This document shows positions 15,321 to 52,914 of a stretch of 64,000 nucleotides of DNA, piece after piece. This DNA comes from Chitinophagales bacterium. GTDB taxonomy: Bacteria > Bacteroidota > Bacteroidia > Chitinophagales > UBA10324. The notes under the pieces are model-generated. The model had not been told where the DNA came from, ran no database searches, and saw only the letters and a program-made list of their open reading frames with translations. Within the stretch, counting starts at the first letter, position 1; the number at the start of each line of letters is the position of its first letter. Location: positions 38,051 to 102,050 of the forward strand of contig JACDDS010000004.1 of NCBI GenBank assembly GCA_013816805.1, read 5' to 3'. Position numbers and translations under genes: made by a program.

Positions 15321-15869
15321 ATGAGTCGAAAATATAAGATTCTTGATCAAACAAAACTTTACTTTATTTCATTTGCTGTAGTCAATTGGATTGATCTGTT
15401 TATTAGAAATGAATACAGGAACATTTTGCTTGATAGTCTCATGTTTTGTCAAAAGAAAAAAGGATTAGAAGTGTTTGCATGGTGTATTATGACAAGCCAT
15501 ATGCATTTAATCATTGGCACTCAAGGCAATCCAATGGAAGATATTCTGAGAGACTTCAAGAGTTTCACATCAAGAAATCTTCGAATTGCCATCGAGGAAA
15601 ATTCGACAGAAAGCAGAAAGGAATGGTTGGTGAAAATGATGTATGAGGTTGGATTGACAAATAGAAACAATCGCGGCTTTCAGTTATGGCAGCAGCATAA
15701 CCATCCAATAGAATTGGCTACCAATGAAATGATTGTTCAGCGACTCCAATACATTCATTTTAATCCTGTTAAAGCAGGCTTTGTTAGTGATCCCGAAGAT
15801 TATCTTTACAGCAGTGCAAGAGATTATGCAGGTGAGCCAGGATTAGTGAAAATAATCTTGCTTGACTGA
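15321..15869 (+). CDS. HUH/Y1 tyrosine transposase, IS200-like / REP-associated (RAYT) type
   Basis: 182 aa with the HUH motif in CIMTSHMHLIIG and the catalytic Tyr region LQYIHFNPVKAGFV...YLYSSARDY. Confidence 0.8.
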   Translation: MSRKYKILDQTKLYFISFAVVNWIDLFIRNEYRNILLDSLMFCQKKKGLEVFAWCIMTSHMHLIIGTQGNPMEDILRDFKSFTSRNLRIAIEENSTESRKEWLVKMMYEVGLTNRNNRGFQLWQQHNHPIELATNEMIVQRLQYIHFNPVKAGFVSDPEDYLYSSARDYAGEPGLVKIILLD

Positions 15870-26299: not shown

Positions 26300-28393
26300 C
26301 TATCGAACTTGAATAATTTTCTTAGAGAAAATTATTCCATCCACTATCATCCTTACGAAATAAATCCCTTCACTATTTCCGCTGAATGAATACTGATACT
26401 CTCCAGCAATTTGACTTTCATTTCGCAAAATCATTTTTACTTTTTGTCCGAAGAGGTCAAAAACTTCGAGTGAGACAGTAGAATTTTTTTGAAGTTTGTA
26501 ATGCAGTGTTGTTGACCGTTGAAAGGGATTGGGATAAATAGAAAAGGAAAAAGCATCTGCTTCAACATCCGGAGCACTGAGAATATTCTGAAGTGGCCGC
26601 TTCCAAACCCCTGCGCCGTAAGTGGGTGCATAAATTTCCGTACTGCTTAAAGCAAGTGAATACACTTTCAAATTCGATAATCCATCATTTACAGAAGTCC
26701 AGGTATCGCCCTTATCATTGGATAATAAAACGCCTGAGTCAGTTGCTGCAAAAATGTTTGTTCCGGAAAATTTTAGATCCCATACGAAATTGAATACCCC
26801 CTGCCCAATTTGATCCCATGTAGCTCCTTGATCCAAAGAACGAAGCTCTGTGATGGTGCCGCCATCGAAATAGCGGACATAAAGCGCAGAGTCAGATAGG
26901 AAAAGACAACAAGGAATTGCGAATGAATCAAGCGGGAGATTGGTAGCGCTAAATGTAGAACCGTTATCAGAAGAGTAATAAATATTGTTGGTATAATTGG
27001 GGGAATGAACAATAGTATACACTTCGCCGTTTAGGACAGAAACCTCATAAATGTGATCCAAAGAATCTGTAATTAGGATATTTTCCCATGTTACTCCATA
27101 GTCAGAAGAATGATACAGATAAGGATCATAAGAATCACCGGGCACAACATAGATGTCCGGGCTGTCAAGTGCTATAAATCCGAAAGAGAAGCCCGGGTTT
27201 GGAAGCTCAGACCACGATGAAGAAAACGGCGACCATTTAAACCAGTCGTAATAGTTGAAAAGAAAAAGGTTGTTTCCATCAGTAATCAAGTTACCGTACC
27301 ATGGATCAGGAGTAAAAACTAAGCCATCATTTGCTATGCTCCAGCTTGCACCATCATCTTCTGACCTGATTACACCTTTGGTTTCATAATCTTCAGTGAA
27401 CAAATCACCCCCACTCCAGGCGAGTGCATTACAACCTGATGCAACTAATCCCTCATTGGAGTAAGTCCAGTTAAGCCCATTATCATAGGAAATTGACACG
27501 CCGGCAACATCACCCATGAAAAGGTTTGCTCCTGAGAGCATGAGAGCAAAAACATATTTATCAGTTGAGTGCTGCCACGAGGTTCCATTGTCTGTAGAAA
27601 TCTGAACTCCTGTTGGCGAGCCTGCGATGAATGATGAACCAGTTTTTATCATTGCCGTCACGTATTCATAATTGTTAAGATGGCTCCAAAAATTCCAGGT
27701 TACGCCCCCATCATCGGATTCACGGATAAGCCCAAAATTTTCCTCGTACAAAGTATCTGAATCTGATAGCACAAGATGTGAGTACGCCAAAATATTCCCC
27801 TTCAAATTCCAATTAATGCCGTTGTCATTTGAAGAAAAAATTGCACCTGCAATAGTGCTTGCATAAACCTCACTTCCTGAAAGCAATGTTGAATTGATGC
27901 GTGAAGAAGAAGTTAAACCTGATTGACAGATGTTCCAGGTTGCGGCATTGTCGGAAGAATAATACATGCCGGAATCTGTTCCTGCCAACAGCATGGTGCC
28001 GGATTGAACCAAGGTGTTCACATTTAAATTCCCCAATCCGCTATTGCTCTCAGTCCAGTTGATACCTAAATCAGTTGAAAGATAAATTCCGCCGCCATAG
28101 GTGGCAGCGAACATTCCTGCGGGAAGAATAGCGTTGATTTTATAATACGGCAATCCGCTGTTTTCTTTTACCCATTCATTTCCGAATCCTGATACGCTGT
28201 AAATCTGACCTCCCGCGGTTCCGGCATAAATGGTAGTACCGATTTGTGCAAGCGCAGTTACACTTCCACCCTGAGGTCCCCTAGTTTGGGTCCATTGCGC
28301 GGTTGCCATTTGAATATGGAGTAGCATAAGGAAGCCGGAGAAGAGAGTAAATAATTTTCGACTCCCGATGTAATGCCGTTGAAATTTTTTCAT
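26300..28393 (-). CDS. BNR/Asp-box repeat beta-propeller protein with a T9SS sorting domain (paralog B)
   Basis: 697 aa with about 11 SxDxGxxW boxes (STDLGINWTE, SSDNAATWN, SDDGGVTWNF, STDNGTSWQH, SEDDGASWS, SSDYGVTWEN, SLDQGATWDQ, SNDKGDTWTS ...). The C-terminus reads FSIYPNPFQRST...GIYFVRMIVDGIIFSKKIIQVR. Confidence 0.8.
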   Translation of the reverse strand: MKKFQRHYIGSRKLFTLFSGFLMLLHIQMATAQWTQTRGPQGGSVTALAQIGTTIYAGTAGGQIYSVSGFGNEWVKENSGLPYYKINAILPAGMFAATYGGGIYLSTDLGINWTESNSGLGNLNVNTLVQSGTMLLAGTDSGMYYSSDNAATWNICQSGLTSSSRINSTLLSGSEVYASTIAGAIFSSNDNGINWNLKGNILAYSHLVLSDSDTLYEENFGLIRESDDGGVTWNFWSHLNNYEYVTAMIKTGSSFIAGSPTGVQISTDNGTSWQHSTDKYVFALMLSGANLFMGDVAGVSISYDNGLNWTYSNEGLVASGCNALAWSGGDLFTEDYETKGVIRSEDDGASWSIANDGLVFTPDPWYGNLITDGNNLFLFNYYDWFKWSPFSSSWSELPNPGFSFGFIALDSPDIYVVPGDSYDPYLYHSSDYGVTWENILITDSLDHIYEVSVLNGEVYTIVHSPNYTNNIYYSSDNGSTFSATNLPLDSFAIPCCLFLSDSALYVRYFDGGTITELRSLDQGATWDQIGQGVFNFVWDLKFSGTNIFAATDSGVLLSNDKGDTWTSVNDGLSNLKVYSLALSSTEIYAPTYGAGVWKRPLQNILSAPDVEADAFSFSIYPNPFQRSTTLHYKLQKNSTVSLEVFDLFGQKVKMILRNESQIAGEYQYSFSGNSEGIYFVRMIVDGIIFSKKIIQVR

Positions 28394-28403
28394 ATCGTTT
28401 TTG

Positions 28404-30515
28404 TTATGGATATTTTAGCTGAATAATTTTTTTAGAGAAGATTTTTCCATCCACTATCATCTTAATGAAATAAATCCCTTCACTATTTCCGCTGAATGGA
28501 TACTGATGCTCTCCAGCAACCTGGCTTTCATTTTGCAAAATCGTTTTAACTTTTTGTCCAAGGAAATTATAGACTTCGAGAGATATAATAGAACTTCCTT
28601 TGAGTGTGTAATGCGTTAAGGTTGCCTGCTGAAATGGATTGGGATAAATAGAAAAGTTGAAATTATCTCCTGCAATATCAGGAATACTGAGAATACTCTG
28701 AAGAGATCGTTGCCATATTCCCTGGCCCATAGTGGTTGCATAGATTTTCGTTTCCTGTATTTCAAGATGACGGACATCCGTTTCCGGTAGTCCTTCATTT
28801 ACAGAAATCCATGATGTTCCTTCATCAGCCGATAAAAACACTCCTGAATCCGTAGCTGCAAAAATGCTTGCTCCCGAAAATTTCATGTCGTAGACGTAAG
28901 TGAATACACCTTTCCCAATTTGATTCCATGAAGTGCCATGATCAGCGGAGCGAAAAGCCGCACTCGTGTAAGCATTAAAATAATTGGCATACAGTGCAGA
29001 GTCAGAGAGAAAGATTGAAAGAGGATCTTTGTAGAACAATTGACCTGAATCGGGCCGAGGGATTGAGAAAAATGTATTGCCATTATCAGGGGAAAAATAA
29101 AAAGAAGACCAGGTAAGAGCGTACAGTTCATTTTTTGAGAATACCACATCAGAAATGTAATTGACGGTATCCGCAACCAGGATGTTGTTCCAGGTTGTGC
29201 CATAGTCAGGAGAGTGATGCAGATAATGATCATAATAATCCTGAGAGGCAACATAAATATCAGGGCTGTCAATTGCAATTCCAGAAAAATTAAAGCCGGT
29301 GTTAGGAAGTGCAAGCCAGGATGAGGAAGATGGCGACCAGGCAAATAAATTATAGTAGTTACTTATAAAAAGATTATTTCCATCGGCTAGCAGTAGACCG
29401 TACCATGGGTCATATGACAAGGGTAAGCCATCATTTACCATACTCCAGGTTTCACCATCATCTTCCGACCTGAATACTCCCTGATCCTCATAATCTTCAG
29501 AAAACAAATTACCAGCACTTGAAACAAGTGCGTAACAATTGGTGGCAACTAAACCCACATTGGAGTAAGTCCAGTTAATACCATTATCATAAGAAACGGA
29601 TGCTCCGGCATAATCACCCATATAGAGGGTTGTTCCTGAAATCATGATTGCATTTACATGTGTTTCTGACGAGTAGAGGTAGTGTTGCCACGATACTCCA
29701 TTGTCAATAGAAATTTGAACGCCTGTAGACGAACCTGCTATAAAGGATGAGCCACTTTTTATTAGCACCGTTACGGGAAAATAGTTAGTATAGGTCCATA
29801 CACTCCAGGTCAAACCTTCGTCCTCTGATTTACGGATCGGTGCACCTCCAGACGGATATGCTGCATACAACACACCTGCATCTGATAACATGAGTTGCAT
29901 TCCTGCCTGCAGGTTTGCCTTCCAACTCCAGTTCACCCCATTATCATCAGAAACAAAAATTTCACCTATGGAAGTGCTTGCAAAAACTTTAGTGCCTGAA
30001 AGCAGTATTGAATTGATGCGTGAAGAAGAAGTTAAACCTGATTGGCAGATATTCCAGGTTGCGGCATTATCTGAAGAGTAATACATGCCGGAATCTGTTC
30101 CAACCAAAAGTATTGAGCCGGATTGAACCAACGTGTTCGCATGGAAATTTCCCAAGCCGTTGTTGCGTTCGATCCAGTTAATTCCCAAATCAGTTGAAAG
30201 ATAAATTCCCCCACCATAAGTGGCGGCTAACATTCCCTCTGGAAGAATAGCATTGATTTGATAACCATACAGCCCGCTGTTTTCTTTTGTCCACCCATTA
30301 CCGAATTCAGAAGTTCTGTAGATCTGACCTCCGGCAGTTCCAGCATAAATGGTAGTACCGATTTGTGCAAGCGCAGTTACACTTCCGCCCTGAGGTCCCT
30401 TAGTTTGCGTCCATTGCGCGGGCGCCAGTTGACTATAGAATACCAAAACGAAACTGAAGAGGATAGAAACTAATTTTAAAGACTTCAGGTATTGCTGCCG
30501 GTATACATTTTTCAT
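28404..30515 (-). CDS. BNR/Asp-box repeat beta-propeller protein with a T9SS sorting domain (paralog A)
   Basis: 703 aa with the same architecture as paralog B. The N-terminal ~170 aa and the C-terminal tail are nearly identical to paralog B. Only a 10-nt spacer separates the two genes. Confidence 0.8.
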   Translation of the reverse strand: MKNVYRQQYLKSLKLVSILFSFVLVFYSQLAPAQWTQTKGPQGGSVTALAQIGTTIYAGTAGGQIYRTSEFGNGWTKENSGLYGYQINAILPEGMLAATYGGGIYLSTDLGINWIERNNGLGNFHANTLVQSGSILLVGTDSGMYYSSDNAATWNICQSGLTSSSRINSILLSGTKVFASTSIGEIFVSDDNGVNWSWKANLQAGMQLMLSDAGVLYAAYPSGGAPIRKSEDEGLTWSVWTYTNYFPVTVLIKSGSSFIAGSSTGVQISIDNGVSWQHYLYSSETHVNAIMISGTTLYMGDYAGASVSYDNGINWTYSNVGLVATNCYALVSSAGNLFSEDYEDQGVFRSEDDGETWSMVNDGLPLSYDPWYGLLLADGNNLFISNYYNLFAWSPSSSSWLALPNTGFNFSGIAIDSPDIYVASQDYYDHYLHHSPDYGTTWNNILVADTVNYISDVVFSKNELYALTWSSFYFSPDNGNTFFSIPRPDSGQLFYKDPLSIFLSDSALYANYFNAYTSAAFRSADHGTSWNQIGKGVFTYVYDMKFSGASIFAATDSGVFLSADEGTSWISVNEGLPETDVRHLEIQETKIYATTMGQGIWQRSLQSILSIPDIAGDNFNFSIYPNPFQQATLTHYTLKGSSIISLEVYNFLGQKVKTILQNESQVAGEHQYPFSGNSEGIYFIKMIVDGKIFSKKIIQLKYP

Positions 30516-30682
30516 GCTTGGTTTATTTATATTTATTTAAATACTTTCTAAAATACTATTCATTACCATCATTGTGAGAGGTAATGCCTGCAGCGGGCGA
30601 AAATCGGATTTGGATAAACCGAGGGTCCCTACTTTCTTTTTCGTTGTTCATTGCTTATACAATCGTTATGCGGAGCCGAATA

Positions 30683-31333
30683 TTAAACCAATTTATGTTT
30701 CAGTGCTTTTGAAACTGCTTCAGTCATAGAATGGACGTGCAGTGTTTCATAAATTTTGCGAATGTAAAAGCGAACGCCGTCAATAGTAATATTCATTTCC
30801 GCCGCAATCATTTTATAGCTGAGCCCTTGGGTAAGTAATGAGAGCACTTGTTTTTCTTTTTCATTCAGCATGAATACTTCACCGGACTTGGGTGCTGAAT
30901 TTTTTTGAAACAAATTCAGCACTTTGCTTGCAATCACAGGTGTCATAGGCGCACCGCCGGCGATCACTTCATGAATGGCTTCAATTAATTTTGTGCCGGA
31001 AGTATTCTTAAGCAAATATCCTGAAGCGCCTGCACAAATGGATTGAAACACCATATCATCTTCATCGAAAATCGTTTGCATCAGAATTTTTACATCTGGA
31101 AAATTTTCCCGGATCATCTTAACACCTTCAATTCCATTAATGCCGGGCATGTGAATGTCCATCAGCACTACATCGGGTGTGGCGAGATTAAGTTCTTTGA
31201 TCAGGTTATTGCAATCCGGATATGCACCGTATAATTCAAAACCGGGTGAGCGTTCAATAAGCTGAGACAAACCATTGCGTAAAGATTTATTGTCTTCGAA
31301 GATTGATACTTTAATCACCACATGTCCATTCAT
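30683..31333 (-). CDS. response regulator transcription factor (REC + LuxR/NarL-type HTH)
   Basis: 216 aa. The receiver domain has the phospho-acceptor context DVVLMDIHMPGING. The C-terminal HTH reads LNEKEKQVLSLLTQGLSYKMIAAEMNITIDGVRFYIRKIY. Confidence 0.9.
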   Translation of the reverse strand: MNGHVVIKVSIFEDNKSLRNGLSQLIERSPGFELYGAYPDCNNLIKELNLATPDVVLMDIHMPGINGIEGVKMIRENFPDVKILMQTIFDEDDMVFQSICAGASGYLLKNTSGTKLIEAIHEVIAGGAPMTPVIASKVLNLFQKNSAPKSGEVFMLNEKEKQVLSLLTQGLSYKMIAAEMNITIDGVRFYIRKIYETLHVHSMTEAVSKALKHKLV

Positions 31334-31391
31334 CTCAAGTTATTCTAAGTTGCAAAATTCTACTATCGATTTTCATCTATCAAGTACATAT

Positions 31392-31990
31392 TCATGTAGC
31401 AGGAAAAAAAAGATGAATAGTTGTTCCTTTTCCTTCCGCTGATTGAATGCTAATATCCCCCTTCATTTCTTCACTGCGTCTTCTCATGCTCAACAATCCA
31501 TATCCAGGGGTGTAATCATTCAAATCAAAGCCCTCGCCATCATCTTCAATTTTCATTTTCAGCATTTTTCCTTCAAGCCTCAATTTAATTGTGCAAGTCT
31601 TAGATGAAGAATATTTTGCTACGTTGTTTACTGCTTCCTTAAAGATGAGATACAGATTTTTTCTGTTTTCCATCGACAACTTCAATCCCGGCAGAGAAGA
31701 GGAGGCATCAAACTTTAAATCAATATTTTTTGCCTCGAGAATTCCTGATGCAAACGTGCGCATGCGTTGGAGTATGTTTTCAAAGCGATCATTCTTTGGG
31801 TTGATTGCCCACACCACATCACTCATTGATTCGATGGTGCCCCGAGCATTCTCATTGATGGTATAAAGCAGCGATGATGCTTTCGGAGATTTCTCTTTCA
31901 CTTCTTCATTCACGAGTTCGCTATAGATGGCAATGCTGCTAAGCATGCTGCCAACATCATCATGCAGATCACCGGCAATTTTATTTCTAA
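31392..31990 (-). repeat. transmitter-module repeat, copy 1 of 3 (~600 nt)
   Basis: Long nucleotide identity with 33437-34040 and 36799-37400. For example, the segment near 31601-31670 is identical to the HK3 copy. Confidence 0.8.
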
Positions 31991-32567
31991 TCATTTGCAA
32001 TTTCAAGGTTTGCCTTAGGCGCAAGCGATTGATGAAAAGAAATGCTATAAAGAGGAACAGGGCGAAACCGGTTATAAGAACATTTTTGATAATTCGTTGT
32101 ACCCAGACTTGCTCTGTGTGAAGCTCGTTATCTCTATTAAGCAGAGAAATTTGAGCATCTTTCTTTTCACTTTCATATTGCTCTTTCATTTGGGCAGTTA
32201 GCTTGCTGCTTTCTTCATTTAGCAACGTGTCTTTCATATCAGAATACAACTGGTGATACTCGTAAGCTTTTTTGTAGTCATTCGCCCCTGCAGACGCCTC
32301 TGCCAAACCTGCATATGCTTCTTTAATATCATTTCTACCTCCGATTTCTTTTGAAACTGAGAGTGCATCCTCTAAATACTTTCTTGCCTCTGGAAATTTT
32401 TTAAGTTTAATATTAACTAACCCGAGACTGATGTAGGAATTAGCAATCCCCTCCTTGTCTCCGATTTCTTCTCTTATTTTCAAAGAAGCAAAATAATTTT
32501 TCACCCCCTCGGGATAGTTTTCTTGCTCAGAATAAACATTTCCGATATTAACATAATCGATAGCCAT
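31392..32567 (-). CDS. sensor histidine kinase, C-terminal fragment of a frameshifted TPR-input kinase (TPR, coiled coil, TM, HisKA_3-like DHp, HATPase_c)
   Basis: 391 aa with IRNKIAGDLHDDVGSMLSSI (H-box), KEAVNNVAKYS (N-box), IEDDGEGF and GYGLLSMRRR. It begins in the middle of a TPR unit. Confidence 0.8.
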   Translation of the reverse strand: MAIDYVNIGNVYSEQENYPEGVKNYFASLKIREEIGDKEGIANSYISLGLVNIKLKKFPEARKYLEDALSVSKEIGGRNDIKEAYAGLAEASAGANDYKKAYEYHQLYSDMKDTLLNEESSKLTAQMKEQYESEKKDAQISLLNRDNELHTEQVWVQRIIKNVLITGFALFLFIAFLFINRLRLRQTLKLQMIRNKIAGDLHDDVGSMLSSIAIYSELVNEEVKEKSPKASSLLYTINENARGTIESMSDVVWAINPKNDRFENILQRMRTFASGILEAKNIDLKFDASSSLPGLKLSMENRKNLYLIFKEAVNNVAKYSSSKTCTIKLRLEGKMLKMKIEDDGEGFDLNDYTPGYGLLSMRRRSEEMKGDISIQSAEGKGTTIHLFFPAT

Positions 32568-33060
32568 TCCCTTCTTGTCCTTATTTCTTCTTTTATTTTC
32601 AAAGAAGCAAAATAATTTTGCAGTGCTTCAGGATAGTTGCCTTGTTTTCTATGAGCAATTCCGATATTACCGTAAGAAGCAGCGATCCCGATTTTGTCTC
32701 CAATTTCTTCAGAAACTTTTAGGCAAGCAGAGTAATTATTTAGTGCTTCGGAAGTATTGCCCTGCTCGTAATAAATAAACCCGATGTTATTGTAATTATT
32801 TGCAAGTCCGTTTTTGTTTCCGATTTCTTCATCTATTTTCAAGGAGGTAAAATAATTTTTCAATGCCTCCGGATAGTTGCCTTGATAATCATATATAATG
32901 CCGATGTTGCCATAACAAGTAGCGATTCTTTTTTTGTCTCCGATTTCTTCACTTATTTGCAGGGAAGCAAAATAATTTTTTAATGATTCCGGATAGTTAC
33001 CTTGATCGGCATAAATAACTCCAATGACGTTATGAGCGTCGGCTTCGCCAATTCTAAAAG
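32341..33060 (-). repeat. intragenic 120-nt tandem repeat array (TPR units)
   Basis: The motif (C/T)(G/A/T)ATTTCTT(C/T) recurs at 32342, 32462, 32581, 32701, 32821 and 32941. The spacings are 120, 119, 120, 120 and 120 nt. Confidence 0.8.
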
Positions 33061-33283
33061 TTATTTTTTCAGAGAGGGCTAAAGCATTGTTACCATATTT
33101 CTTTGCCTGAGCGTAGTCTCCCATTTTCCAAAATTTACGAGCCAGAGCGTTTAATATCTTTACTTTGCTCGTGTCTTCAGTTGCTGTTTCCAACACTTGC
33201 TTGAGCGAATCAATTTTACTCTGTTGGGCCATCCCCGAAAATGATGCAACACAAATGCTGATGATCAAAAAAAATTTATTCAT
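32501..33283 (-). CDS. signal peptide + TPR repeat fragment; N-terminal part of the frameshifted TPR-input kinase
   Basis: 260 aa. MNKFFLIISICVASFSGMAQ is followed by repeated GNYPEALKNYFASLKIxEEIGDK units. The last 17 codons are out of register with the repeat consensus. Confidence 0.75.
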   Translation of the reverse strand: MNKFFLIISICVASFSGMAQQSKIDSLKQVLETATEDTSKVKILNALARKFWKMGDYAQAKKYGNNALALSEKITFRIGEADAHNVIGVIYADQGNYPESLKNYFASLQISEEIGDKKRIATCYGNIGIIYDYQGNYPEALKNYFTSLKIDEEIGNKNGLANNYNNIGFIYYEQGNTSEALNNYSACLKVSEEIGDKIGIAASYGNIGIAHRKQGNYPEALQNYFASLKIKEEIRTRREWLSIMLISEMFILSKKTIPRG

Positions 33284-33404
33284 TGCGTAAAAGTTTTCTC
33301 TTTTAAAACAGATTGTCTAACAGGAAATATGCAGAAATAAATTTAGAAACTCAAATGAGTAGATTACCAAACCTGTGCACATCCACGGCAACGGCTATAA
33401 AGGA

Positions 33405-33429
33405 CTTTCCTAAATTCTTATTAGGAAAG
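33405..33429 (-). terminator. hairpin directly after the second kinase gene
   Basis: CTTTCCTAA/TTAGGAAAG forms a perfect 9-bp stem with a 7-nt loop, 7 nt below the stop at 33437. The downstream tract on the minus strand (TCCTTTAT) is only moderately U-rich. Confidence 0.4.
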
Positions 33430-33436
33430 TTCATAA

Positions 33437-34040
33437 TCATGTAGCGGAACATGAAAGATGAATTGTAGTTCCTTTTCCTTTTATTGACTGGATGTTGAGG
33501 TCACCCTTCATCTCCTCGCTGCGCCTTTTCATGCTCACCAATCCATTGCCTGCGGCGTAATCATTCAGATCGAAGCCTATTCCATCATCTTCAATTTTGA
33601 TGTTAAGTATTTTTCCTTCAAGCCACAATTTAATTGTGCAAGTCTTAGATGAAGAATATTTTGCAATGTTGTTTACAGCTTCCTTAAAGACGAGGTACAG
33701 ATTTTTTCTTTTTTCCATTGACAATTTCAAACCCGGCAGGGAAGGGGAGGCATCAAACTTTAGATCAATATTCTTTGCCTCGAGAATCCCTGATGCAAAG
33801 GTTCGCATGCGCTGAAGAATATTTTCGAAGCGGTCGTTCTTCGGGTTGATTGCCCATACGATGTCGCTCATTGCTTCGATGGTTGTGCGCGAATTCTCAT
33901 TGATGGTTTCGAGAAGTGAGGAAGCTTTTTTGGATTTATCTTTTACTTCTTCATTCGCCAATTCACTGTAAATGACGATGCTGCTGAGTGTGCTGCCGAT
34001 ATCGTCGTGAAGGTCGCTGGCGATTTTGTTTCTCACGTGT
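33437..34040 (-). repeat. transmitter-module repeat, copy 2 of 3
   Basis: See copies 1 and 3. A stretch of more than 90 nt around 33700-33800 differs from the HK3 copy at a single position. Confidence 0.8.
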
Positions 34041-36589
34041 TGTAGTTTCAAAATCTGCTGGAGGCGGTAATAATAAATCCCATAAAGCATTCCACAGAAA
34101 AGAATCAGGCATAGTGTATAAAACCACCATGTTCTCCAAAATGGGGGAAAAATAAAAATGTGCTCGGTAGCGCCGTCAATATTCCATACGCCATCATGAT
34201 TTGTACCGATAACATGCAATGTGTAGTTACCGGGGTTTAGATTCGTATAGTTGGCAAAGGTTCTGTTGCCACAGAAGTTCCAATTCTTGTCTAAGCCATC
34301 GAGTTTATAGGCGTATTGATATCTTTCAGGAGATATGTAATCCAGTGATGCAAAATTAAAGGAGACAAAATTTTGTTGGTAATTCAAATCAATCTGTCGT
34401 TTGTAGCTGATGGATGTATCGGAGGCGTAATCTTTCCCGAATATTTTGAAATCGGAAAGAATAATGGGAGATGGATGAAAGCTGATTGGGAATGAATTCG
34501 GATCAAACATCATTAAGCCCTTTTCATAGACAAAATAGATCCATCCGTCACTGTCCATAAGAGAAGCACCTGTTATTTCATTTCCCGGGCAGCCATTTTT
34601 TATATTAAAAACCTGAATGAAATTTTTGTTTGACGGAAATGATGTGTAAGCATTTTCCTGATATGAAGCATACAAGGAATCGGTGATGATTCTGCATAAG
34701 CCGGCATTGGTTTCCACCCATAGATTTCCATTTTTATCAGCAATCACGTCATGCACGTAGTCGCCAGGTAAACCATCTTCTTTACTGATTAGAAAATTTT
34801 TTTTTCCTTCTTTGGGAAGCCCGATGAGACCTTTGGTATAACCGCCGATCCAAAGGATACGATGAGAATCCTCTGAATGCCCGCTCAAAAATAAAAGTTG
34901 ATGAGAAAATTGTTCAGTGTGTTGGGGAAATAAATTAATCAGTTCATCGGTTTCCCAGTTGTAGGTATACACTCCGCTTTGATCATCGAAGCACAATAGC
35001 CCCTCAGCATTTTCATAAAAATGACTGACGTCGGAATTGTTGAAGATTTTTAAAGACGATGAATCATTATGATAACGGCTGAATTTTCCTGTGATGTAAT
35101 CAAAGGTTTTAATTCCTTTTAAGCCAATGCTTATCCAAATTGTTCCCTGATTATCTTCGTATGCATTAGCAATATCGTTGTCCTCAGATAGGGTGAGATC
35201 AAATGGGGCAGGTAAATATGACTTTATTTTTTTTGACAAAGGGTCAAAAAATATCAACCCTTTACCGCGTGTCGCAACCATCAAGTCATCATCTCTAATT
35301 TCCTGAATCGAATTAATTTGCAACCCTTGCAGAACAGAAGCAACAGCGGGATCTTTAGTATAATTGATGAATGATCCCGTATATTTATTCAGAGAAATCA
35401 AGCTTCCCTCTTCAGTACCAATCAGGATATTTTTCTTTTTATCCTGTCCAAAACAAACAATGGACTCATCGGGCAGCGAATATTTATCGGTTGAGCTATA
35501 ATTAAAAGTGAAAAAATTCTCACAATTGAGATTTACGATGTTTATTCCAGCATTGTATGTACCGATCCAAAGCTGGCTTTTAGAATGGTTTGTAAAAATG
35601 CACGTTATGTAATTATCGCTGATAGAGTAATTATCATTCTCATTACTGTTATACCAATGTACTTTACCGGTTTTTTCATTGAAGAGCGAAAGCCCGGCTC
35701 CGAGTGAACCAAGCCAAAACAATTTCTTATCGTCCTGGAAAATACAATTTATTAAATTTTCATTCTGCGAAGTGCTATCTTCAAAAGATTTTGAATAACA
35801 GGTAAATATACCCGTCTCCTTATTATAAGAATCGAGGCCGCCACCTAAGCCTCCTGTCCATAAAACGCCGGAGTCGTCCTCGAAAAGTGCCTGTACCCAA
35901 CCATGATGAGCACCATTTGGGTCAGTTGCCTTATAAGGATGGTAAGTAAAATTTTTGTTGAGAAGGTCAAATGAGTAAAGTCCACCACCAAGTGTACCTA
36001 TCCAGACTGTTTTATTTTTGTCTTTGCAGAAACATTTTACATAATTTGCTCGTGCGTGCGCATTCTTCGGGTCGAGAACATAACATTTAAACTGTTTTGT
36101 GGATGGATCAAATATATTAAGTCCACCGCCATTCGTGCCAATCCAAATTTTTCCTTCATGATCTCCCATCAGACAAAGCAGCTTGTTGCTGGAGACAGAA
36201 TTAGGATTTAATGAATCATGAATATAATGAGTGAATTTTTCAGACACCAAATCCAGCATATCCAGTCCGCCGCCATCTGTTCCAATCCATAAGTGATTAT
36301 GATGATCAGAATATAAACAACGAATTGCTCCCGAAGTCAAGGAGTTTACAGAATCCTCATGCTTGAAAATTTTGAAATGCTGCCCGTCATAACGGTTCAA
36401 TCCATTTTGCGTTCCAACCCACATGAATCCCAAACTGTCCTGCGTGATGCAATAGACGCTGTTTTGAGATAGACCATCTTCAGTGGTAAGATGTTGGAAG
36501 TTAAGATTAAAATTTTGAGAATAAAGAGGAGGAGTGATTAAGAAATAAAAAAGAAGTTCAAATAGCAATATTTTTTTCAAAATTGTCAT
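33437..36589 (-). CDS. sensor histidine kinase with a periplasmic two-component-regulator propeller + Y_Y_Y input domain (non-hybrid)
   Basis: 1050 aa. After the signal sequence come many Reg_prop-like units (GLSQNSVYCITQDSLGFMWVGTQNGLNRYDG, WIGTDGGGLD, WIGTNGGGLN ...). A Y_Y_Y region follows (YQYAYKLDGLDKNW...YTLHVIGTN), then a TM segment and the shared transmitter module. Confidence 0.85.
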   Translation of the reverse strand: MTILKKILLFELLFYFLITPPLYSQNFNLNFQHLTTEDGLSQNSVYCITQDSLGFMWVGTQNGLNRYDGQHFKIFKHEDSVNSLTSGAIRCLYSDHHNHLWIGTDGGGLDMLDLVSEKFTHYIHDSLNPNSVSSNKLLCLMGDHEGKIWIGTNGGGLNIFDPSTKQFKCYVLDPKNAHARANYVKCFCKDKNKTVWIGTLGGGLYSFDLLNKNFTYHPYKATDPNGAHHGWVQALFEDDSGVLWTGGLGGGLDSYNKETGIFTCYSKSFEDSTSQNENLINCIFQDDKKLFWLGSLGAGLSLFNEKTGKVHWYNSNENDNYSISDNYITCIFTNHSKSQLWIGTYNAGINIVNLNCENFFTFNYSSTDKYSLPDESIVCFGQDKKKNILIGTEEGSLISLNKYTGSFINYTKDPAVASVLQGLQINSIQEIRDDDLMVATRGKGLIFFDPLSKKIKSYLPAPFDLTLSEDNDIANAYEDNQGTIWISIGLKGIKTFDYITGKFSRYHNDSSSLKIFNNSDVSHFYENAEGLLCFDDQSGVYTYNWETDELINLFPQHTEQFSHQLLFLSGHSEDSHRILWIGGYTKGLIGLPKEGKKNFLISKEDGLPGDYVHDVIADKNGNLWVETNAGLCRIITDSLYASYQENAYTSFPSNKNFIQVFNIKNGCPGNEITGASLMDSDGWIYFVYEKGLMMFDPNSFPISFHPSPIILSDFKIFGKDYASDTSISYKRQIDLNYQQNFVSFNFASLDYISPERYQYAYKLDGLDKNWNFCGNRTFANYTNLNPGNYTLHVIGTNHDGVWNIDGATEHIFIFPPFWRTWWFYTLCLILFCGMLYGIYYYRLQQILKLQHVRNKIASDLHDDIGSTLSSIVIYSELANEEVKDKSKKASSLLETINENSRTTIEAMSDIVWAINPKNDRFENILQRMRTFASGILEAKNIDLKFDASPSLPGLKLSMEKRKNLYLVFKEAVNNIAKYSSSKTCTIKLWLEGKILNIKIEDDGIGFDLNDYAAGNGLVSMKRRSEEMKGDLNIQSIKGKGTTIHLSCSAT

Positions 36590-36798
36590 GCAATTGAGAA
36601 TAAATTATAATTTATTTCAGGAAAGGGAAGAAGTAAATGTATTAAACAGGAAACCAATTCTGGCAAGTTAGCATTCCAGTTCCCTTCATCACGCAAGTCT
36701 GTGCCAATTTTCTTTCGTTTCCCTGTGAAGCTAGCAATCCGCATATGATCCCTTAAATATATGATACCCAAGCGAGAGAGAATGCTGCAAGTGCGTAA

Positions 36799-37400
36799 TC
36801 ATGTAGTTGAAAATGAAAGATGTATCGCTGTTCCCTTTTCTTTGATTGAGCTAATGTCGAGATTACCCTGCATTTCCTCGCTTCTCCTTTTCATGTTCGC
36901 CAATCCATTGCCTGCGGCGTAATCATTCAAATCGAAGCCCGTTCCATCATCTTCAATTTGCATGTTGAGTATTTTTCCTTCAAGCCACAATTTAATTGTA
37001 CAAGTCTTAGATGAAGAATATTTTGCTACGTTGTTTACTGCTTCCTTAAAGATGAGATACAGATTTTTTCTTTTTTCCATTGACAATTTCAAACCCGGCA
37101 GGGAAGGGGAGGCATCAAACTTTAGATCAATATTTTTTGCCTCGAGAATCCCTGATGCAAAAGTGCGCATGCGCTGAAGTATATTTTCAAAGCGATCGTT
37201 ATTTGGATTAATTGCCCAGACAATATCGCTCATGGATTCCATAGTGGTTCTAGCGTTTTCATTGATGGACATAAGAAGCCCTGTGGTGCGCCCCGATTTA
37301 TCTTTCATCTCTTCATTCGCCAGTTCACTGAAGATTGCAATGCTGCTGAGCGTGCTGCCGATATCATCATGAAGGTCGCCTGCAATTTTATTCCTGAGCT
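36799..37400 (-). repeat. transmitter-module repeat, copy 3 of 3
   Basis: See copies 1 and 2. Confidence 0.8.
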
Positions 37401-39879
37401 TTTGTGATAGTATGTAACGCTGTAGCCTGAAACGATAGAAAATGTAAATAATAGTCGCAGCAATTAACATCAGGATAAACATTGCACTCAATTGGAACCA
37501 TACCGTCTTGTAAAAAAGTGTTGCCACATAAATCTGTAACGGCTTAATAATTTCACTCCAATGCGATCCATCTGTAGTGGCTTTTACACGAAAGGAATAA
37601 TTGCCGCCGGGCAAACTGGTGTAGTTTACGAACTCCCTGGTTCCGGAAGCAATCCAATTCTTATCGTACCCTTCAAGCATGTAAGCATATTGATTGTCGT
37701 GTGCGTTCAGCATATTGGGAGCACTAAAATCAAACGAAAAGGAGTTCTCCATAGCAGATAAATTCACCAGGCTATCATCCTTCCAACTCCTCAAATTGCC
37801 CAACACCTTAAAAGATGTGATGACAGGATAAAGGGGTTCAATTTTTTTTTGAATGCTGTCAGGATCGAAGAAGATGATTCCGGTATTTGAGGCGACATAG
37901 AATTTATTTCGTGTGGAATCAAAAAAGATTGAATTCATGGATCTTTCTGGCAATCCATCTTTTAAAGTAAAGTTTGTGAATTGAATAGTTTGAGGATTGA
38001 AGCTCGAGATTCCCTCCTCTGTTCCCATCCAGATTATTCCATTATTATCGTGGTCAATTGTCCAAATTCCTTCTCCTCCCAAGCCATCTGCCCGCCGATA
38101 CCTTCGGCAAATCTGCGAATTAAGTGAGCATTGAATCAAACCCGCCAAGGTGCCAACCCAAATAGTTCCATGATTATCATTGAACATGGAGACGATGTTG
38201 TCATTTTTTAGCTCATTATAAAAAGGAGGTGGAAGCTCAATAAAGCGTTCTGATTTATAATCAAAGCAGGTGATGCTACCTCTGGAATAGGCCATCCAAA
38301 TGTGACCCTCACCATCTTCTGCTGCACTATCAAAATGCCTGAAAGGAAAATGATGCGCTCCGCTATCCTCCATGCCATAATGAATAAATTGATTTGTTTT
38401 TCGATTCCAGCTAAACAACCCATACTGCCCCCACATGCCTATCCAGATTTGATGCTGGTAATCTTCGAAAAAAAATACAGCAGTGATGGTATCTAATAAG
38501 GGAGGATGAGGAATAAGAAATTTATTGATAGCCGGAATTTTAAGATTAATCGTATAGAGTCCAACATGCGCTCCGTTATCTACATCAGATGCTGAGACAA
38601 GTATGTTTTGAGGATCCAAACCAATTACAGACCAAAAAGTATTTTTCTTATTTGCATCAGGATAAGCATAACGATATTGCTTTAGAGAATGAGTTTGGAT
38701 ATTCATTATAAAAAATCCATTGGCAGTAGGGATAAGAAGGTTAGAGTCAACAAGAATTACTTGGATTATTGCATTTTTAATATCGGGCGCTTCAGGAAAA
38801 TAGTTTCCGAATTCTTCATAGAAATGAAACGGATTTTTATCAATTTTATATCGGGTGAGCGCATCAGAAGCAAACCAGATATTACCTTTTCTATCCTGCA
38901 TAAAACTATTGCACCCCCCCAATCCCTGCGGAAGCTCCGGAGATACATGTGCGAGTATGGTTTGAAATGTTTCAGTAGCAGGATCGAATAGATAAAACTC
39001 ACGATGCTTCGAAAGAAGCAGAATCTTTCCATCATGCAAAATAAGTGATCCGCCCGTGAGCAGCATTTCATTCAAAGCCGGATAATACTTCAATTCATTT
39101 TGCGTGGGATTGAATTTATAAATTCCATTATTGCCCGTTAGCCAGAGGTTTCTTAAGCTATCTTCACTCAAACCGGTATTAGTCACTTCAAACATTTTCC
39201 AGTGCTTAGGGTTGTGTTTTGAATTATAAACAGTTCCGCTTTCAGCATCAATGGCATTGAGCGAGCTATTAATGGATAACCATATGTTACCCGAATGATC
39301 TTCCAATAGTAGCCCCCCGCTTATCCAGTTAACATTTTTATCCAGCCAATAGAATGAATCTTTTTTATTCCACTTCCTGATTACGTTAAATTGATGATCA
39401 AATTCAATGAGGGCATCAATTCCCAATACCCATATATTTTTTTTATGATCTATAAGGAAACTAGATACCTTATTTCCTAATTCTGCCAGATGATCACCCA
39501 GAGCATCACGATGAGCATTTGTTCTCGGATTAAAAATCACTATACCATCGCGATTGGTTTGCAGCAATAAATTATTCTCAGCATCCTCTGCTATTTCACG
39601 AATCGCATTGATGTAGAGGGTTTTTTTCAAAGAATCAGAAAGGTAGATCGGGATGAATGTTTTACCATCGAAGCGGTTCAACCCATAACCGGTACCGACC
39701 CATAAAAATCCCTGATGATCCTCGTATAAAGAAAGAATAGATTGATCGGACAAGCCATCCTTTGTTCCGAACTGTTCAAAGCGAAATGAAGTGGTTTGAG
39801 AATAAGAAACACCGGTACTCAGAAAAAAAATGACCGTAAAGATCTTACCAGAAATCCGGAATAGCATACAGTGGTTCAT
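36799..39879 (-). CDS. sensor histidine kinase with a propeller + Y_Y_Y input domain (non-hybrid), second paralog
   Basis: 1026 aa with the same architecture as the second kinase (YAYMLEGYDKNW...YSFRVKATTDG). The sensor part is strongly diverged from it, but the transmitter is nearly identical. Confidence 0.85.
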   Translation of the reverse strand: MNHCMLFRISGKIFTVIFFLSTGVSYSQTTSFRFEQFGTKDGLSDQSILSLYEDHQGFLWVGTGYGLNRFDGKTFIPIYLSDSLKKTLYINAIREIAEDAENNLLLQTNRDGIVIFNPRTNAHRDALGDHLAELGNKVSSFLIDHKKNIWVLGIDALIEFDHQFNVIRKWNKKDSFYWLDKNVNWISGGLLLEDHSGNIWLSINSSLNAIDAESGTVYNSKHNPKHWKMFEVTNTGLSEDSLRNLWLTGNNGIYKFNPTQNELKYYPALNEMLLTGGSLILHDGKILLLSKHREFYLFDPATETFQTILAHVSPELPQGLGGCNSFMQDRKGNIWFASDALTRYKIDKNPFHFYEEFGNYFPEAPDIKNAIIQVILVDSNLLIPTANGFFIMNIQTHSLKQYRYAYPDANKKNTFWSVIGLDPQNILVSASDVDNGAHVGLYTINLKIPAINKFLIPHPPLLDTITAVFFFEDYQHQIWIGMWGQYGLFSWNRKTNQFIHYGMEDSGAHHFPFRHFDSAAEDGEGHIWMAYSRGSITCFDYKSERFIELPPPFYNELKNDNIVSMFNDNHGTIWVGTLAGLIQCSLNSQICRRYRRADGLGGEGIWTIDHDNNGIIWMGTEEGISSFNPQTIQFTNFTLKDGLPERSMNSIFFDSTRNKFYVASNTGIIFFDPDSIQKKIEPLYPVITSFKVLGNLRSWKDDSLVNLSAMENSFSFDFSAPNMLNAHDNQYAYMLEGYDKNWIASGTREFVNYTSLPGGNYSFRVKATTDGSHWSEIIKPLQIYVATLFYKTVWFQLSAMFILMLIAATIIYIFYRFRLQRYILSQKLRNKIAGDLHDDIGSTLSSIAIFSELANEEMKDKSGRTTGLLMSINENARTTMESMSDIVWAINPNNDRFENILQRMRTFASGILEAKNIDLKFDASPSLPGLKLSMEKRKNLYLIFKEAVNNVAKYSSSKTCTIKLWLEGKILNMQIEDDGTGFDLNDYAAGNGLANMKRRSEEMQGNLDISSIKEKGTAIHLSFSTT

Positions 39880-39938
39880 TCAAAGGAAAAGCAAAATAAA
39901 GATAGCACTTCATCCAGGACCTTGATCAAAGTAAGTTT

Positions 39939-40233
39939 CTATAAACCTGGACGAACAAAGCCAACAGCATGGTATCTTGCCACCCCTTTAAAATCATTTT
40001 TCTTTGACCATATGTTTAAGGTAGGGTTATATTCGCAGAAATCATTTCTATAACCTTCATTACCATTATCATATCCAGTCCCGATATATGCAATGTTTCC
40101 AATTGCAAAATCCAAAGGCGCCATATTTTGCTATACCTCCGAAATCGGCTCTCTGTCTCCATGTATCCAGCAATAATCCCTTCTGTAAATACAACGCAAA
40201 CAGTATTGCGATAAAAAGTGCAATTTTTTTCAT
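39939..40233 (-). pseudogene. Kelch-like repeat protein gene stump (frameshifted and 3'-truncated)
   Basis: The ATG at 40233 gives MKKIALFIAILFALYLQKGLLLDTWRQRADFGGIAKYGAFGF. The track ORF continues in the +1 frame with ...FAIGNIAYIGTGYDNGNEGYRNDFCEYNPTLNIWSKKNDFKGVARYHAVGF. Removing one T from the TTTT at about 40105 joins the two. The reading frame stops after about 1.5 Kelch units, 59 nt from the kinase gene start. Confidence 0.55.
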
Positions 40234-40257
40234 TGGAATTTTCTCACAAGAATTTAA

Positions 40258-40611
40258 TTATTTAATCACCTTCAATTTCTTTAATTCCTCTACAGAAACC
40301 GTTGGCGGCATTTCTCCTTTTTTCATTTTGGTGATCACCAGCTGCGCCACTTTCTCTGCATCTGCCTTTGTTTTAAATCCATCATTGCCCGGCATTGCCG
40401 GAATACTCAGTTGATGAATAACCAACTTGCTATCGGCATACAAGTCGTAACCAAAAGTTTTATCGGAAGCATCAATGATTTTATAGGTGAATTGGGTGTT
40501 TATTACTGCGCTATTCTGCTGCGAAGATGCAGGCGATAATGGTGCTGCCTGTTGGGCATGAAGGATATTTATTGAACAGTAAAAAATGGAAATAAAAAAG
40601 AGTGTTTTCAT
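40258..40611 (-). CDS. small secreted protein, DUF4907-like
   Basis: 117 aa with a signal peptide, then FGYDLYADSKLVIHQLSIPAMPGNDGFKTKADAEKVAQLVITKM. I recall this pattern as the Bacteroidota DUF4907 family, which is usually paired with Kelch proteins. Not verified by search. Confidence 0.5.
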   Translation of the reverse strand: MKTLFFISIFYCSINILHAQQAAPLSPASSQQNSAVINTQFTYKIIDASDKTFGYDLYADSKLVIHQLSIPAMPGNDGFKTKADAEKVAQLVITKMKKGEMPPTVSVEELKKLKVIK

Positions 40612-40893
40612 AAGATGTGATTAAAGAAGATTAAAGATTTCCTGAGGTGTATTTTCGAAGAAAGCTAATCATATTTTACAAGAAATCTTTATATAAAATA
40701 AAAAAATTCATCCTCAAATCTTATAGTTAAATACAGTAGTAAAATATAACAAATTGTATTTCCTCATCTGATTTTGTTTAAAAGAATGTACTTAGAATTG
40801 TTGCTTCGTGACAAGAATTGCATTGAAACAGGCCGTGTGATTACAGAAAATGGAATAACAGATCAGGAAACCATAATCCTCTGCAGAATCCCA

Positions 40894-42054
40894 TTAAGCC
40901 TTTAAAATAATCCGGAAGGTGGTGCCTTTACCAGGCTGGGATTCTTTTACAAATATTTTCCCTTTGTGATATTCTTCCACAATTCGTTTAGCAAGTGACA
41001 GGCCTAAACCCCATCCCCGTTTTTTTGTAGAATAGCCCGGTTTAAAAACAGTTTTAAACTTTGACGCAGGTATGCCCTTGCCACTATCTTTAATATCCAC
41101 AAAAACCTGATGCTCTTCTTTTTTCAGGAAAATGTCGATGCTGCCATTACCACTTATTGCATCAAGGGCATTTTTCATCAGGTTCTCAATTACCCATTCA
41201 AATAAAGGCGGGCTGATAAGCGCATCTAAATTATTTTCCTGTTCTGCATAAATATTGATGGATACTTTTCCCGAAGCTCTTCGCCGTATATATTCAACGC
41301 TGTGCTCCATTTCTATATACAGGTTGGTAGATACTAATTCCGGCTTTGAGCCAATCTTTGAAAAGCGCTGTGCAATCAACTCCAGTCGTGCTATATCTTT
41401 TTCAACATCGGGAATCACCGAGGCTGCACTATGGTTTCCCAGTATAAGCTTCATATGCTCTACCCAACCGGAAAGCGCGGATATTGGAGTTCCCAACTGA
41501 TGAGCGGTTTCTTTAGCCATCCCTACCCATACCCGGTTTTGCTCTGCACGCCTGGAGGTGCTGAATGTTAAATATGCTACCAGCAGGAAAGCCAGAATGA
41601 TTGAAAACTGTATAAATGGAAAATACCGCAGCTGTACCAGTAAATAAGAATCACTATAGTAAATGTATTGATGTGCATCAGCGGTATATTTAATGTCGAT
41701 TGGCTTGTGCGCTGCTTTCATTGATGCAAGCTCACGGCGTATATAGGACGTATCCTGAGCTGCGCGTAATGTATCAAGGTTTTTATAGCCCCTGACAATT
41801 CCACTATCATCAATCAGAATAAGAGGAACGGTTTCATTAGTTTCAATTACATGAAACATGAAACCAACATCTTCATTTCCTGTGGGGTTTCTGATACGCT
41901 GGTATACATCAGCAATCAGTTCCATTTTTTTTCTTTCCTCTCGGGCAAGCTTACCGGCGAGGAAGTTAGTATACCACACAGAAGCGGAAATAATAAGGAG
42001 CAACACAATCAGCAAAATCATCTTCCAGCGGTTCCTCTGTTCGTAGATGCTCAT
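40894..42054 (-). CDS. sensor histidine kinase (two TM segments, HisKA + HATPase_c), no adjacent response regulator
   Basis: 386 aa with H-box ETAHQLGTPISALSGW, N-box ENLMKNALDA, DSGKGIP and GWGLGLSLAKRIV. Its start overlaps the upstream stop as ATGA. Confidence 0.85.
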   Translation of the reverse strand: MSIYEQRNRWKMILLIVLLLIISASVWYTNFLAGKLAREERKKMELIADVYQRIRNPTGNEDVGFMFHVIETNETVPLILIDDSGIVRGYKNLDTLRAAQDTSYIRRELASMKAAHKPIDIKYTADAHQYIYYSDSYLLVQLRYFPFIQFSIILAFLLVAYLTFSTSRRAEQNRVWVGMAKETAHQLGTPISALSGWVEHMKLILGNHSAASVIPDVEKDIARLELIAQRFSKIGSKPELVSTNLYIEMEHSVEYIRRRASGKVSINIYAEQENNLDALISPPLFEWVIENLMKNALDAISGNGSIDIFLKKEEHQVFVDIKDSGKGIPASKFKTVFKPGYSTKKRGWGLGLSLAKRIVEEYHKGKIFVKESQPGKGTTFRIILKA

Positions 42055-52761: not shown

Positions 52762-52914
52762 TGCAGAAATAAGGGGTTTGGCAGGAAGAATATCTGTTAC
52801 CAGGCAATACCGCAAAGGAACTCGAAAGGTTCCATTCTTATAATTCGAATTATTGCGTTTTGTTACTATATCTAATGGATTTTTTTTCACAGTGATACTC
52901 TAATTTGGAATTAA

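Follow-up and report, generated by a model that had tools for sequence, protein, structure and literature searches.

How three sensor histidine kinases with different inputs came to share closely similar transmitter modules beside a single response regulator, and whether that similarity keeps all three wired to the same regulator, is the question raised by a locus on the minus strand of a 64-kb stretch of DNA (the whole stretch is called the window here). The host appears to be an uncultured, Chitinophagales-like member of the Bacteroidota. A first-pass annotation had proposed three histidine kinases, here HK1, HK2 and HK3, lying head-to-tail with one REC-LuxR regulator. Open reading frames (ORFs) and Pfam matches bear out this layout and its coordinates, with three HisKA_3/HATPase_c kinases and one REC + GerE regulator (Table 1). 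By tblastn the window contains exactly three copies of the transmitter and one REC regulator. The only other kinase in the window (40894-42054) is unrelated and AtoS/ZraS-like, and no two-component protein of the HK1-3 or regulator type occurs among the other large ORFs of the window.

The explanation considered probable is that this is a tandem NarL-class locus in which three kinases most likely signal to one regulator, and in which ectopic gene conversion has homogenised the core of the catalytic and ATP-binding (CA) domain since the lineage split from its sampled relatives. The neighbouring dimerization and histidine phosphotransfer (DHp) domain would have remained unconverted. The DHp and CA boundaries used below were taken from an alignment to the kinase DesK, and codons of the transmitters are counted from RNKIA.

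Divergence along the three transmitters

The sensors are unrelated or strongly diverged, as the annotation had stated. HK1 has a TPR sensor, and the propeller sensors of HK2 and HK3 share approximately 23% amino-acid identity, with a proportion of synonymous differences (pS) of 0.77, which is saturated. Similarity among the three kinases begins at the cytoplasmic end of the transmembrane helix and continues to the stop codon, and it is non-uniform along this length. About 600 nt had been described as almost the same sequence; this is wrong in degree, as high identity is confined to a CA core of approximately 290 nt. Within the CA core (codons 74-170) nucleotide identity is 88-94%, pS is 0.15-0.32 and the proportion of nonsynonymous differences (pN) is 0.03-0.07. 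The corresponding values are 73-76%, 0.65-0.81 and 0.11-0.15 for the DHp domain (codons 0-65), and 67-75%, 0.57-0.66 and 0.13-0.26 for the C-terminus (last 28 codons, 84 nt). A check of silent sites in the transmitter against those in the sensor separates the two domains: the CA core is far below the sensor value, but the DHp domain is saturated. Counted from the alignment, the DHp sequences of HK1-3 differ at approximately 20 of 66 positions.

The peptide DRFENILQRMRTFASGILEAKNIDLKFDAS, which had been singled out for its identity in all three kinases, is indeed identical, but its identity alone says little, because it reflects conservation across the family. Its first 23 of 30 residues (DRFENILQRMRTFASGILEAKNI) recur exactly in three related loci, L003, L164 and L165, where the rest is near-identical, and the whole 30-residue peptide is near-identical in L002 and elsewhere in the group of orthologous regulator loci.

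The tract is delimited by third codon positions. A maximum chi-square analysis places a low-divergence segment from codons 74/78 to 169/177 in all three pairs (permutation p<=0.003-0.007). Third-position differences inside and outside the tract are 10/99 and 49/99 for HK2 and HK3, 15/95 and 47/103 for HK1 and HK3, and 19/91 and 56/107 for HK1 and HK2. By the DesK alignment the tract starts just after the linker between DHp and CA and spans the first CA helix and strand, the N-box, the G1 box and the G2 region. A GENECONV-style permutation test on the three window sequences alone was not significant (global p=0.07 to 0.9), with too few informative sites. Relatives were brought in for this reason, giving a nine-sequence set of HK1-3, the two kinases of L002 (L2_HKa and L2_HKb) and the kinases of L161, L163, L164 and L165. 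In this set the test recovers codons 66-160 for HK1 and HK3 (global p<0.0005), codons 72-173 for HK2 and HK3 (global p<0.0005) and codons 78-149 for HK1 and HK2 (global p=0.014). The proposal of gene conversion among the copies is therefore strongly supported for the CA-core tract, but not for the DHp domain or the transmitter as a whole.

The annotation had further described a finer mosaic of changing pairwise similarity within the tract. Its observations are correct, in that HK2 differs from the shared HK1 and HK3 sequence at five sites (alignment columns 454-484) and HK2 and HK3 differ at one site in approximately 100 nt upstream, but the pattern is only marginally non-random (longest run of HK1 = HK3 sites, 5, p=0.043 uncorrected; overall runs test p=0.20; three-sequence GENECONV-style test, global p=0.07 and 0.56). 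The five private changes of HK2 fall within 31 nt (33665-33695) of an otherwise near-identical tract, and two of them alter amino acids (I to V and V to I). No sampled relative shares any of the four changed codons, and this cluster could stem from micro-conversion by an unseen paralogue or from chance.

Conflicting signals in related genomes

Related loci were found by a search with the regulator and then fetched. The regulator orthogroup is tight, with 78-91% identity followed by a gap to 63%, and the nearest relatives of the window proteins lie in Chitinophagales and other Bacteroidota metagenome bins. L002 has two propeller kinases and a regulator in the same kinase-kinase-regulator layout as the window; L082 is the same sequence (1 mismatch in 13.4 kb) and is not an independent genome. 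One propeller kinase and a regulator are found in each of L161 (L161_HK), L163 (kinase at 2999-6121) and L165 (kinase at 3-2939), and one TPR kinase and a regulator in L164. By its sensor, HK3 is orthologous to L161_HK (57.6% amino-acid identity) and L2_HKa (50.7%), and HK1, once its reading frame is repaired (see below), to the L164 kinase (43.5%). The HK2 sensor has only loose matches, with 26-28% identity to L2_HKb, L163 and L165, and the sensors of L163 and L165 are 65% identical to each other.

Low silent divergence in the CA core is a property of copies within one genome. Values of pS below 0.5 occur in within-genome pairs only, namely the three window pairs (0.15, 0.23 and 0.32) and the L002 pair (0.30). 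All 41 between-genome pairs have CA-core pS of 0.51-0.80, near the level of the orthologous regulators (0.51-0.65), and no significant low-divergence tract is found between orthologues of different genomes (HK3 versus L2_HKa, p=0.22; HK2 versus L2_HKb, p=0.70). This absence speaks against both a mutational cold spot and an element acting at the nucleotide level as the source of the tract.

Such an element, for instance an internal promoter, an RNA or an overlapping ORF embedded in the CA-core DNA, would have to suppress silent change there. A place for a promoter can be named, as the genes are in tandem and each tract occupies the stretch 84-374 nt before the stop codon, hence upstream of the next gene. 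The unreduced third-position change between genomes contradicts this explanation. In addition, there are no Rfam matches at E<=0.1 in 30400-40700, and no ORFs of at least 100 amino acids overlap the tracts. A promoter and terminator scan stayed at or below shuffled background, using a sigma-70 consensus that is unsuited to Bacteroidota. Constraint at the nucleotide level is thus scarcely credible.

Neighbour-joining trees of the two adjacent segments conflict. In the DHp tree, HK3 groups with L161_HK (90% bootstrap) and L163 with L165 (98%), and the window trio receives 0%, which matches the sensors. In the CA-core tree, the window trio receives 100% (98% with third positions only) and the L002 pair 100%, and the grouping of HK3 with L161_HK falls to 0%. 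DHp relationships mirror those of the sensors, whereas CA cores cluster with others of their own genome. These trees were built without L003, the contig of which begins inside a kinase and may have a chimeric end.

Recent duplication with swapping of sensors would need no conversion if the rest of the genes outside the CA core had simply diverged fast. Lineage-specific expansion with domain shuffling is a documented route to a shared kinase domain with different sensors (PMC1630713), and all transmitters of the orthogroup form one clade against outgroups. However, silent sites are saturated on both sides of the tract and unsaturated within it. HK3 joins L161_HK and not its neighbours in the DHp domain, with the opposite in the CA core, and a single duplication date is incompatible with two topologies inside 600 nt. 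The same tract has, moreover, been homogenised independently in L002. Duplication and sensor swapping as the whole account is therefore very unlikely.

An artefact of assembly has also to be considered, in which short-read metagenome assembly mixed the reads of paralogues or strains and so imitated homogenisation and mosaicism. The source assembly, GCA_020064125.1, is highly fragmented, with a number above 12 million in the accession of the contig that holds the window (JAITZQ012879957.1), the frameshift in HK1 described below could be an error of the same origin, and the start of the L003 contig could be a chimeric end. On the other hand, the three tracts are non-identical (6-12% differences) and stand in one 68-kb contig with unique flanks. 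Collapsed reads would have made them identical, whereas their similarity is graded and the amino-acid signatures are particular to each genome. Two records deposited separately, a contig of a metagenome-assembled genome and a JGI metagenome contig, both show the L002 pattern, and the decisive trees were built without L003. An artefact is accordingly held to be highly improbable.

L003 (JBBSDT010000096.1) was dropped as evidence of incongruence. Its first 126 nt, corresponding to DHp codons 18-59 and to approximately 33856-33981 of the window, match HK2 at 122/126 positions, and the contig starts exactly there. The rest of the gene is approximately 77% identical, and the adjacent regulators have a pS of 0.51. 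This similarity would be explained by recombination between lineages or by a chimeric end of the contig.

The kinases of L163 and L165 are sisters in their sensors and DHp domains (98%, pN 0.06) and not in their CA cores (0% bootstrap, pN 0.19). Their CA cores may also have been exchanged, with unseen paralogues in their own genomes. Together with the homogenisation in the window and in L002, this hints at a stronger interpretation, in which sensor and DHp travel as one orthologous unit, the CA domain is a freely exchanged cassette, and CA-only homogenisation is recurrent and selectively maintained and not neutral. Selection of this kind might, for example, favour kinases that react alike when a common factor acts on their CA domains, or that keep matched catalytic rates when feeding one regulator. 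This interpretation is judged unlikely. The tandem pairs of two further loci, L023 and L092, have transmitters of 70-76% amino-acid identity with saturated silent sites and no recent tract (p=0.55-0.59), so recent conversion is not a general property of such arrays.

An older layer of module sharing is visible beneath the tract. The HK2 sensor scores 258-326 bits against kinases of many other genomes and 142 bits against the HK3 sensor, and the transmitters of the top five of these matches are only 40-55% identical to that of HK2. The HK3 sensor likewise scores higher against kinases of other genomes, with transmitters 40-55% identical, than against HK2. HK2 and HK3 share 82% identity in their transmitters; the nearest transmitter outside the window reaches 76%. 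One transmitter clade on unrelated or older sensors implies that, by the time the sampled lineages separated, the DHp and CA module had already been joined to three types of sensor, or homogenised among them. This layer indicates sensor swapping or older homogenisation, as in lineage-specific expansion with domain shuffling (PMC1630713).

The favoured explanation, conversion confined to the CA core, can therefore be set out in two layers. In the first, a whole DHp and CA module specific to the regulator orthogroup would have come to stand on sensors that are unrelated or much older. In the second, after the split from the sampled relatives, ectopic conversion between the tandem copies would have homogenised about 290 nt of the CA core, and the same would have happened independently in L002. 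Conversion, rather than another kind of recombination, is the mechanism that we infer. Recombination may have been seeded by highly conserved motif-coding DNA (WAINPKNDRFENILQRMRTFA; N-box) and tolerated in an interchangeable domain. The DHp domain, where the sensor connects and the regulator docks, would have escaped recent conversion and would track sensor orthology under purifying selection; its exchange would either fail for lack of identity or be purged by selection. CA homogenisation is thus best seen as a tolerated by-product of recombination and not an adaptation.

Probable wiring to one regulator and anatomy of the locus

The annotation had proposed many-to-one signalling from the three kinases to the one regulator, kept in place by conversion. 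The first part of this proposal is plausible, with a single regulator in the window and with orthologous regulators singly paired with each kinase type in other genomes. Orthologous regulators (78-87% identity) adjoin the TPR kinase in L164 and the HK3-type kinase in L161, but the link for HK2 is weaker, as the kinases adjoining the regulators of L163 and L165 are only 26-27% identical to HK2 in their sensors. Convergence of all three kinases on the one regulator is most likely on these grounds. The second part, that conversion keeps the three inputs wired, is not supported. The residues that determine specificity between kinase and regulator lie in the DHp helices and H-box region, and the tract stops short of this domain. 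The DHp domains are held similar by purifying selection and not by recent conversion.

A different arrangement would be three independent systems, with HK2 and/or HK3 signalling to regulators encoded elsewhere and no many-to-one circuit. The extent of difference among the DHp domains, which have not been homogenised, fits this view; lineage-specific expansion is known to leave orphan kinases (PMC1630713), and the genome beyond this contig is unseen. On the other side, every sampled kinase beside an orthologue of the regulator has a transmitter of the same clade, be its sensor of the TPR type, the HK3 type or, as the weaker case, the HK2-like type. The array is also in tandem on the same strand, with co-directional genes separated by gaps of 209, 153 and 58 nt in which the scan found no terminator-like sites, and the layout of two kinases and a regulator is kept in L002. 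Independent wiring of one or more kinases is a minor though real possibility.

HK1 had been read as one gene at 31392-33283, and it is in fact split into two ORFs by a 1-nt deletion near 32580 (Table 1). The frame changes inside a TPR unit (EEI|GDKKG), the 120-nt TPR repeats are spaced by 239 instead of 240 nt at the deletion, and gapless repeat families break at 32580-32582. The unrepaired C-terminal ORF begins at an internal Met and lacks a signal peptide. The repaired protein (630 amino acids) aligns end-to-end with intact TPR-HisKA_3 kinases of other genomes, among them the 640-amino-acid TPR kinase adjoining the orthologous regulator in L164. HK1 would be either a very recent pseudogene still taking part in conversion or the product of an assembly error.

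Several points weigh against conversion and convergence as set out here. The recombination and permutation tests are our own implementations and not published programs, and the comparison set is a handful of metagenome-derived relatives. The tract in the L002 pair is marginal after correction (pairwise p=0.04, global p=0.07). Outside the tract synonymous sites are saturated, so that older conversion there can be neither dated nor excluded. The count of one regulator covers the 64-kb window of a 68-kb contig, and more regulators or paralogues may exist elsewhere in the genome. The putative link between kinases and regulator is read from gene order and comparative genomics. Unless the frameshift in HK1 is an assembly error, the circuit may now hold only two working kinases. 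Finally, if one regulator serves all three kinases, conversion of the DHp domain should be tolerated, and its absence could mean that the DHp domains are adapted individually, either to their own sensors or to different partners.

Table 1. Position and composition of the kinases, their segments, the regulator and the adjoining genes in the window
Feature	Coordinates	Strand	Description and basis
HK3	36799..39879	-	Signal peptide, Reg_prop propellers, Y_Y_Y, one transmembrane helix, HisKA_3, HATPase_c; 1026 amino acids; ORF and Pfam
HK3 DHp domain (H-box helix, loop, helix 2)	37198..37395	-	Protein similar, not recently converted; pS 0.65-0.81 against the other two; with L161_HK at 90% bootstrap
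HK3 CA-core tract copy	36883..37173	-	Codons 74-170, RMRTF...MKRR; 271/288 nt identical to HK2 copy
HK2	33437..36589	-	Reg_prop propellers, Y_Y_Y, HisKA_3, HATPase_c; different, anciently diverged sensor lineage; 1050 amino acids; ORF and Pfam
HK2 DHp domain	33836..34033	-	Translation; pS 0.75-0.81 against paralogues
HK2 CA-core tract copy	33521..33811	-	Putative conversion tract
HK1 N-terminal fragment	32501..33283	-	Signal peptide and approximately five 40-amino-acid TPR units, ends after frameshift; ORF, Pfam TPR_12/TPR_1, 120-nt tandem repeats
HK1 frameshift site (1-nt deletion)	32577..32583	-	Sequence reading, three-frame translation, repeat spacing
HK1 C-terminal fragment	31392..32567	-	Two TPR units, coiled coil, transmembrane helix, HisKA_3, HATPase_c; 391 amino acids from internal ATG; ORF and Pfam
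HK1 DHp domain	31791..31988	-	Same register as HK2 and HK3 copies
HK1 CA-core tract copy	31476..31766	-	253/288 nt identical to HK2 copy, 259/288 to HK3 copy
Response regulator, REC + GerE/LuxR (NarL class)	30683..31333	-	Pfam; sole REC protein detected in window
Two paralogous BNR/sortilin-like type IX secretion system (T9SS) cargo genes	26300..30515 (26300-28393, 28404-30515)	-	Tandem, 61% amino-acid identity, directly downstream of regulator; Pfam and blastp

In the window, L003 and L082 alike, genes for T9SS-sorted proteins come after the regulator, and the cargo genes at 26300-30515 are candidate targets of the regulator. The two BNR/sortilin-like proteins also have sub-threshold matches to the F510_1955-family glycosylhydrolase model. 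A small DUF4907 protein (40258-40611) is encoded just upstream of the kinase array, and in L003, downstream of the regulator, a DUF4907 protein (3848-4228) stands beside a T9SS protein with Kelch repeats, making this family a recurring neighbour. T9SS cargo genes are plentiful across the window (20470-23079, 23312-25444, 52960-55005), and 48424-52890 encodes a T9SS-sorted protein of 1488 amino acids with five MopE-type metal-binding motifs and two GEVED domains. An ORF for an IS200-like Y1 transposase (15321-15869; Pfam Y1_Tnp, E=7.5e-6) lies among housekeeping genes. In L161, three consecutive short ORFs downstream of the regulator (4419-7003; 199, 328 and 291 amino acids), each with Reg_prop matches, look like a fragmented propeller protein and are possibly the remains of another kinase sensor.

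Known systems and the modularity of the kinase

All three kinases match HisKA_3 (37-42 bits, cut-off 24) and HATPase_c (39-51 bits, cut-off 26.4) in Pfam, and the regulator matches Response_reg (78.4 bits) and GerE (45.9 bits), which gives it a receiver and a helix-turn-helix output. The DLHDD sequence of the H-box aligns to His188 of DesK. All NCBIfam matches to named equivalogs (NarL, UhpB, NarQ, NarX, LiaS and others) fall well below their curated cut-offs, for example 122 against 250 for NarL and 78 against 408 for UhpB. By these profiles the locus is a NarL-class member of no named system. It is of an ordinary two-component type of Bacteroidota.

HK2 and HK3 have Reg_prop (132 and 85 bits) and Y_Y_Y (67 and 56 bits) matches in Pfam. 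Hybrid systems of Bacteroides carry a receiver and an AraC-type DNA-binding output fused to the kinase. HK2 and HK3 resemble them in placing periplasmic Reg_prop beta-propellers and Y_Y_Y ahead of a membrane helix, and differ from them in having a HisKA_3 DHp domain, a separate REC-GerE regulator and no fused receiver or AraC-type output. Pfam detects no fused Response_reg or HTH_18/AraC domain in either protein, and both end with HATPase_c. The contrast with hybrid polysaccharide sensors drawn by the first-pass annotation is thus correct, yet the arrangement is not unusual in Bacteroidota. More than 1,100 homologues of the non-hybrid Reg_prop/Y_Y_Y + HisKA_3 kinase are found at E<=1e-20, a regulator within 400 nt downstream is the norm of the family (123 of 141 sampled kinase copies), and tandem arrays with two or more kinases before the regulator are a recurring minority (window, L002, L023 and L092).

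The best solved-structure match of the transmitter is DesK of the DesK-DesR system of B. subtilis (3GIG, 3EHF and 5IUJ among others; E=2.8e-18, residues 1-202). Unlike the window kinases, DesK is a membrane thermosensor with five transmembrane helices, and it has a single cognate regulator. Five residues after the phosphorylated His, DesK carries Gln (HDTLGQ) and the window kinases Ser (HDDIGS). All kinases of the HK1-3 family read HDD(I/V/L)G(S/A) here, and the H-boxes in the window lie near 37365-37385, 34003-34023 and 31958-31978. DxxxQ is the phosphatase motif of HisKA_3 kinases. With Ser or Ala at this position, phosphatase activity may differ, which would be relevant to how several kinases combine on one regulator.

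Histidine kinases are known to expand in a lineage-specific manner with domain shuffling, so that a shared kinase domain is found with different sensors (Alm, Huang & Arkin 2006; PMC1630713). The window kinases resemble those described there in their related kinase module, varied N-terminal sensors and extra copies without an adjacent regulator of their own. They differ in that a discrete CA-core tract has been homogenised after speciation, gene conversion having no mention in that paper, and in that the copies are in tandem beside the regulator and not scattered. Many-to-one pathways include KinA-E to Spo0F in B. subtilis and LuxN/LuxQ to LuxU in V. harveyi, and NarX/NarQ with NarL/NarP of E. 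coli is listed as many-to-many (PMC12471899). Like the first two, the window locus combines several sensors of different inputs with one receiver, and like NarX/NarQ-NarL it has HisKA_3 and NarL-class chemistry. Unlike all of these, it consists of tandem paralogues with periplasmic propeller or TPR sensors and has no phosphorelay protein, and its convergence is read from gene order and comparative genomics.

The homogenisation itself can be compared with duplicated genes outside signalling. The tufA/tufB genes and the rRNA operons are duplicated bacterial genes under concerted evolution by gene conversion. As in that case, paralogues within a genome are closer to each other than orthologues between genomes, and the tract boundaries are sharp. 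In the window, unlike in tufA/tufB and rRNA, homogenisation affects only a single domain of a multidomain signalling protein, and the neighbouring domains keep the orthologous signal. Full-text literature searches returned no described case of histidine-kinase paralogues that undergo gene conversion or evolve in concert.

Concerted evolution restricted to the CA domain of a kinase is therefore apparently undescribed, and it is an evolutionary detail and not a new mechanism. The locus provides a natural experiment on kinase modularity, in which the CA domain would have been swapped repeatedly among unrelated sensors and the DHp domain left untouched. The pattern supports the view that the CA domains of paralogues can functionally stand in for one another and that the DHp domain is the part held by selection. 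It corrects the idea that conversion maintains wiring, and makes a small addition to what is understood of the evolution of two-component families; the accepted picture of how such systems operate is unchanged. The locus also offers a concrete candidate for three sensors acting on one regulator, with type IX secretion cargo genes of an uncultured lineage as its possible targets.

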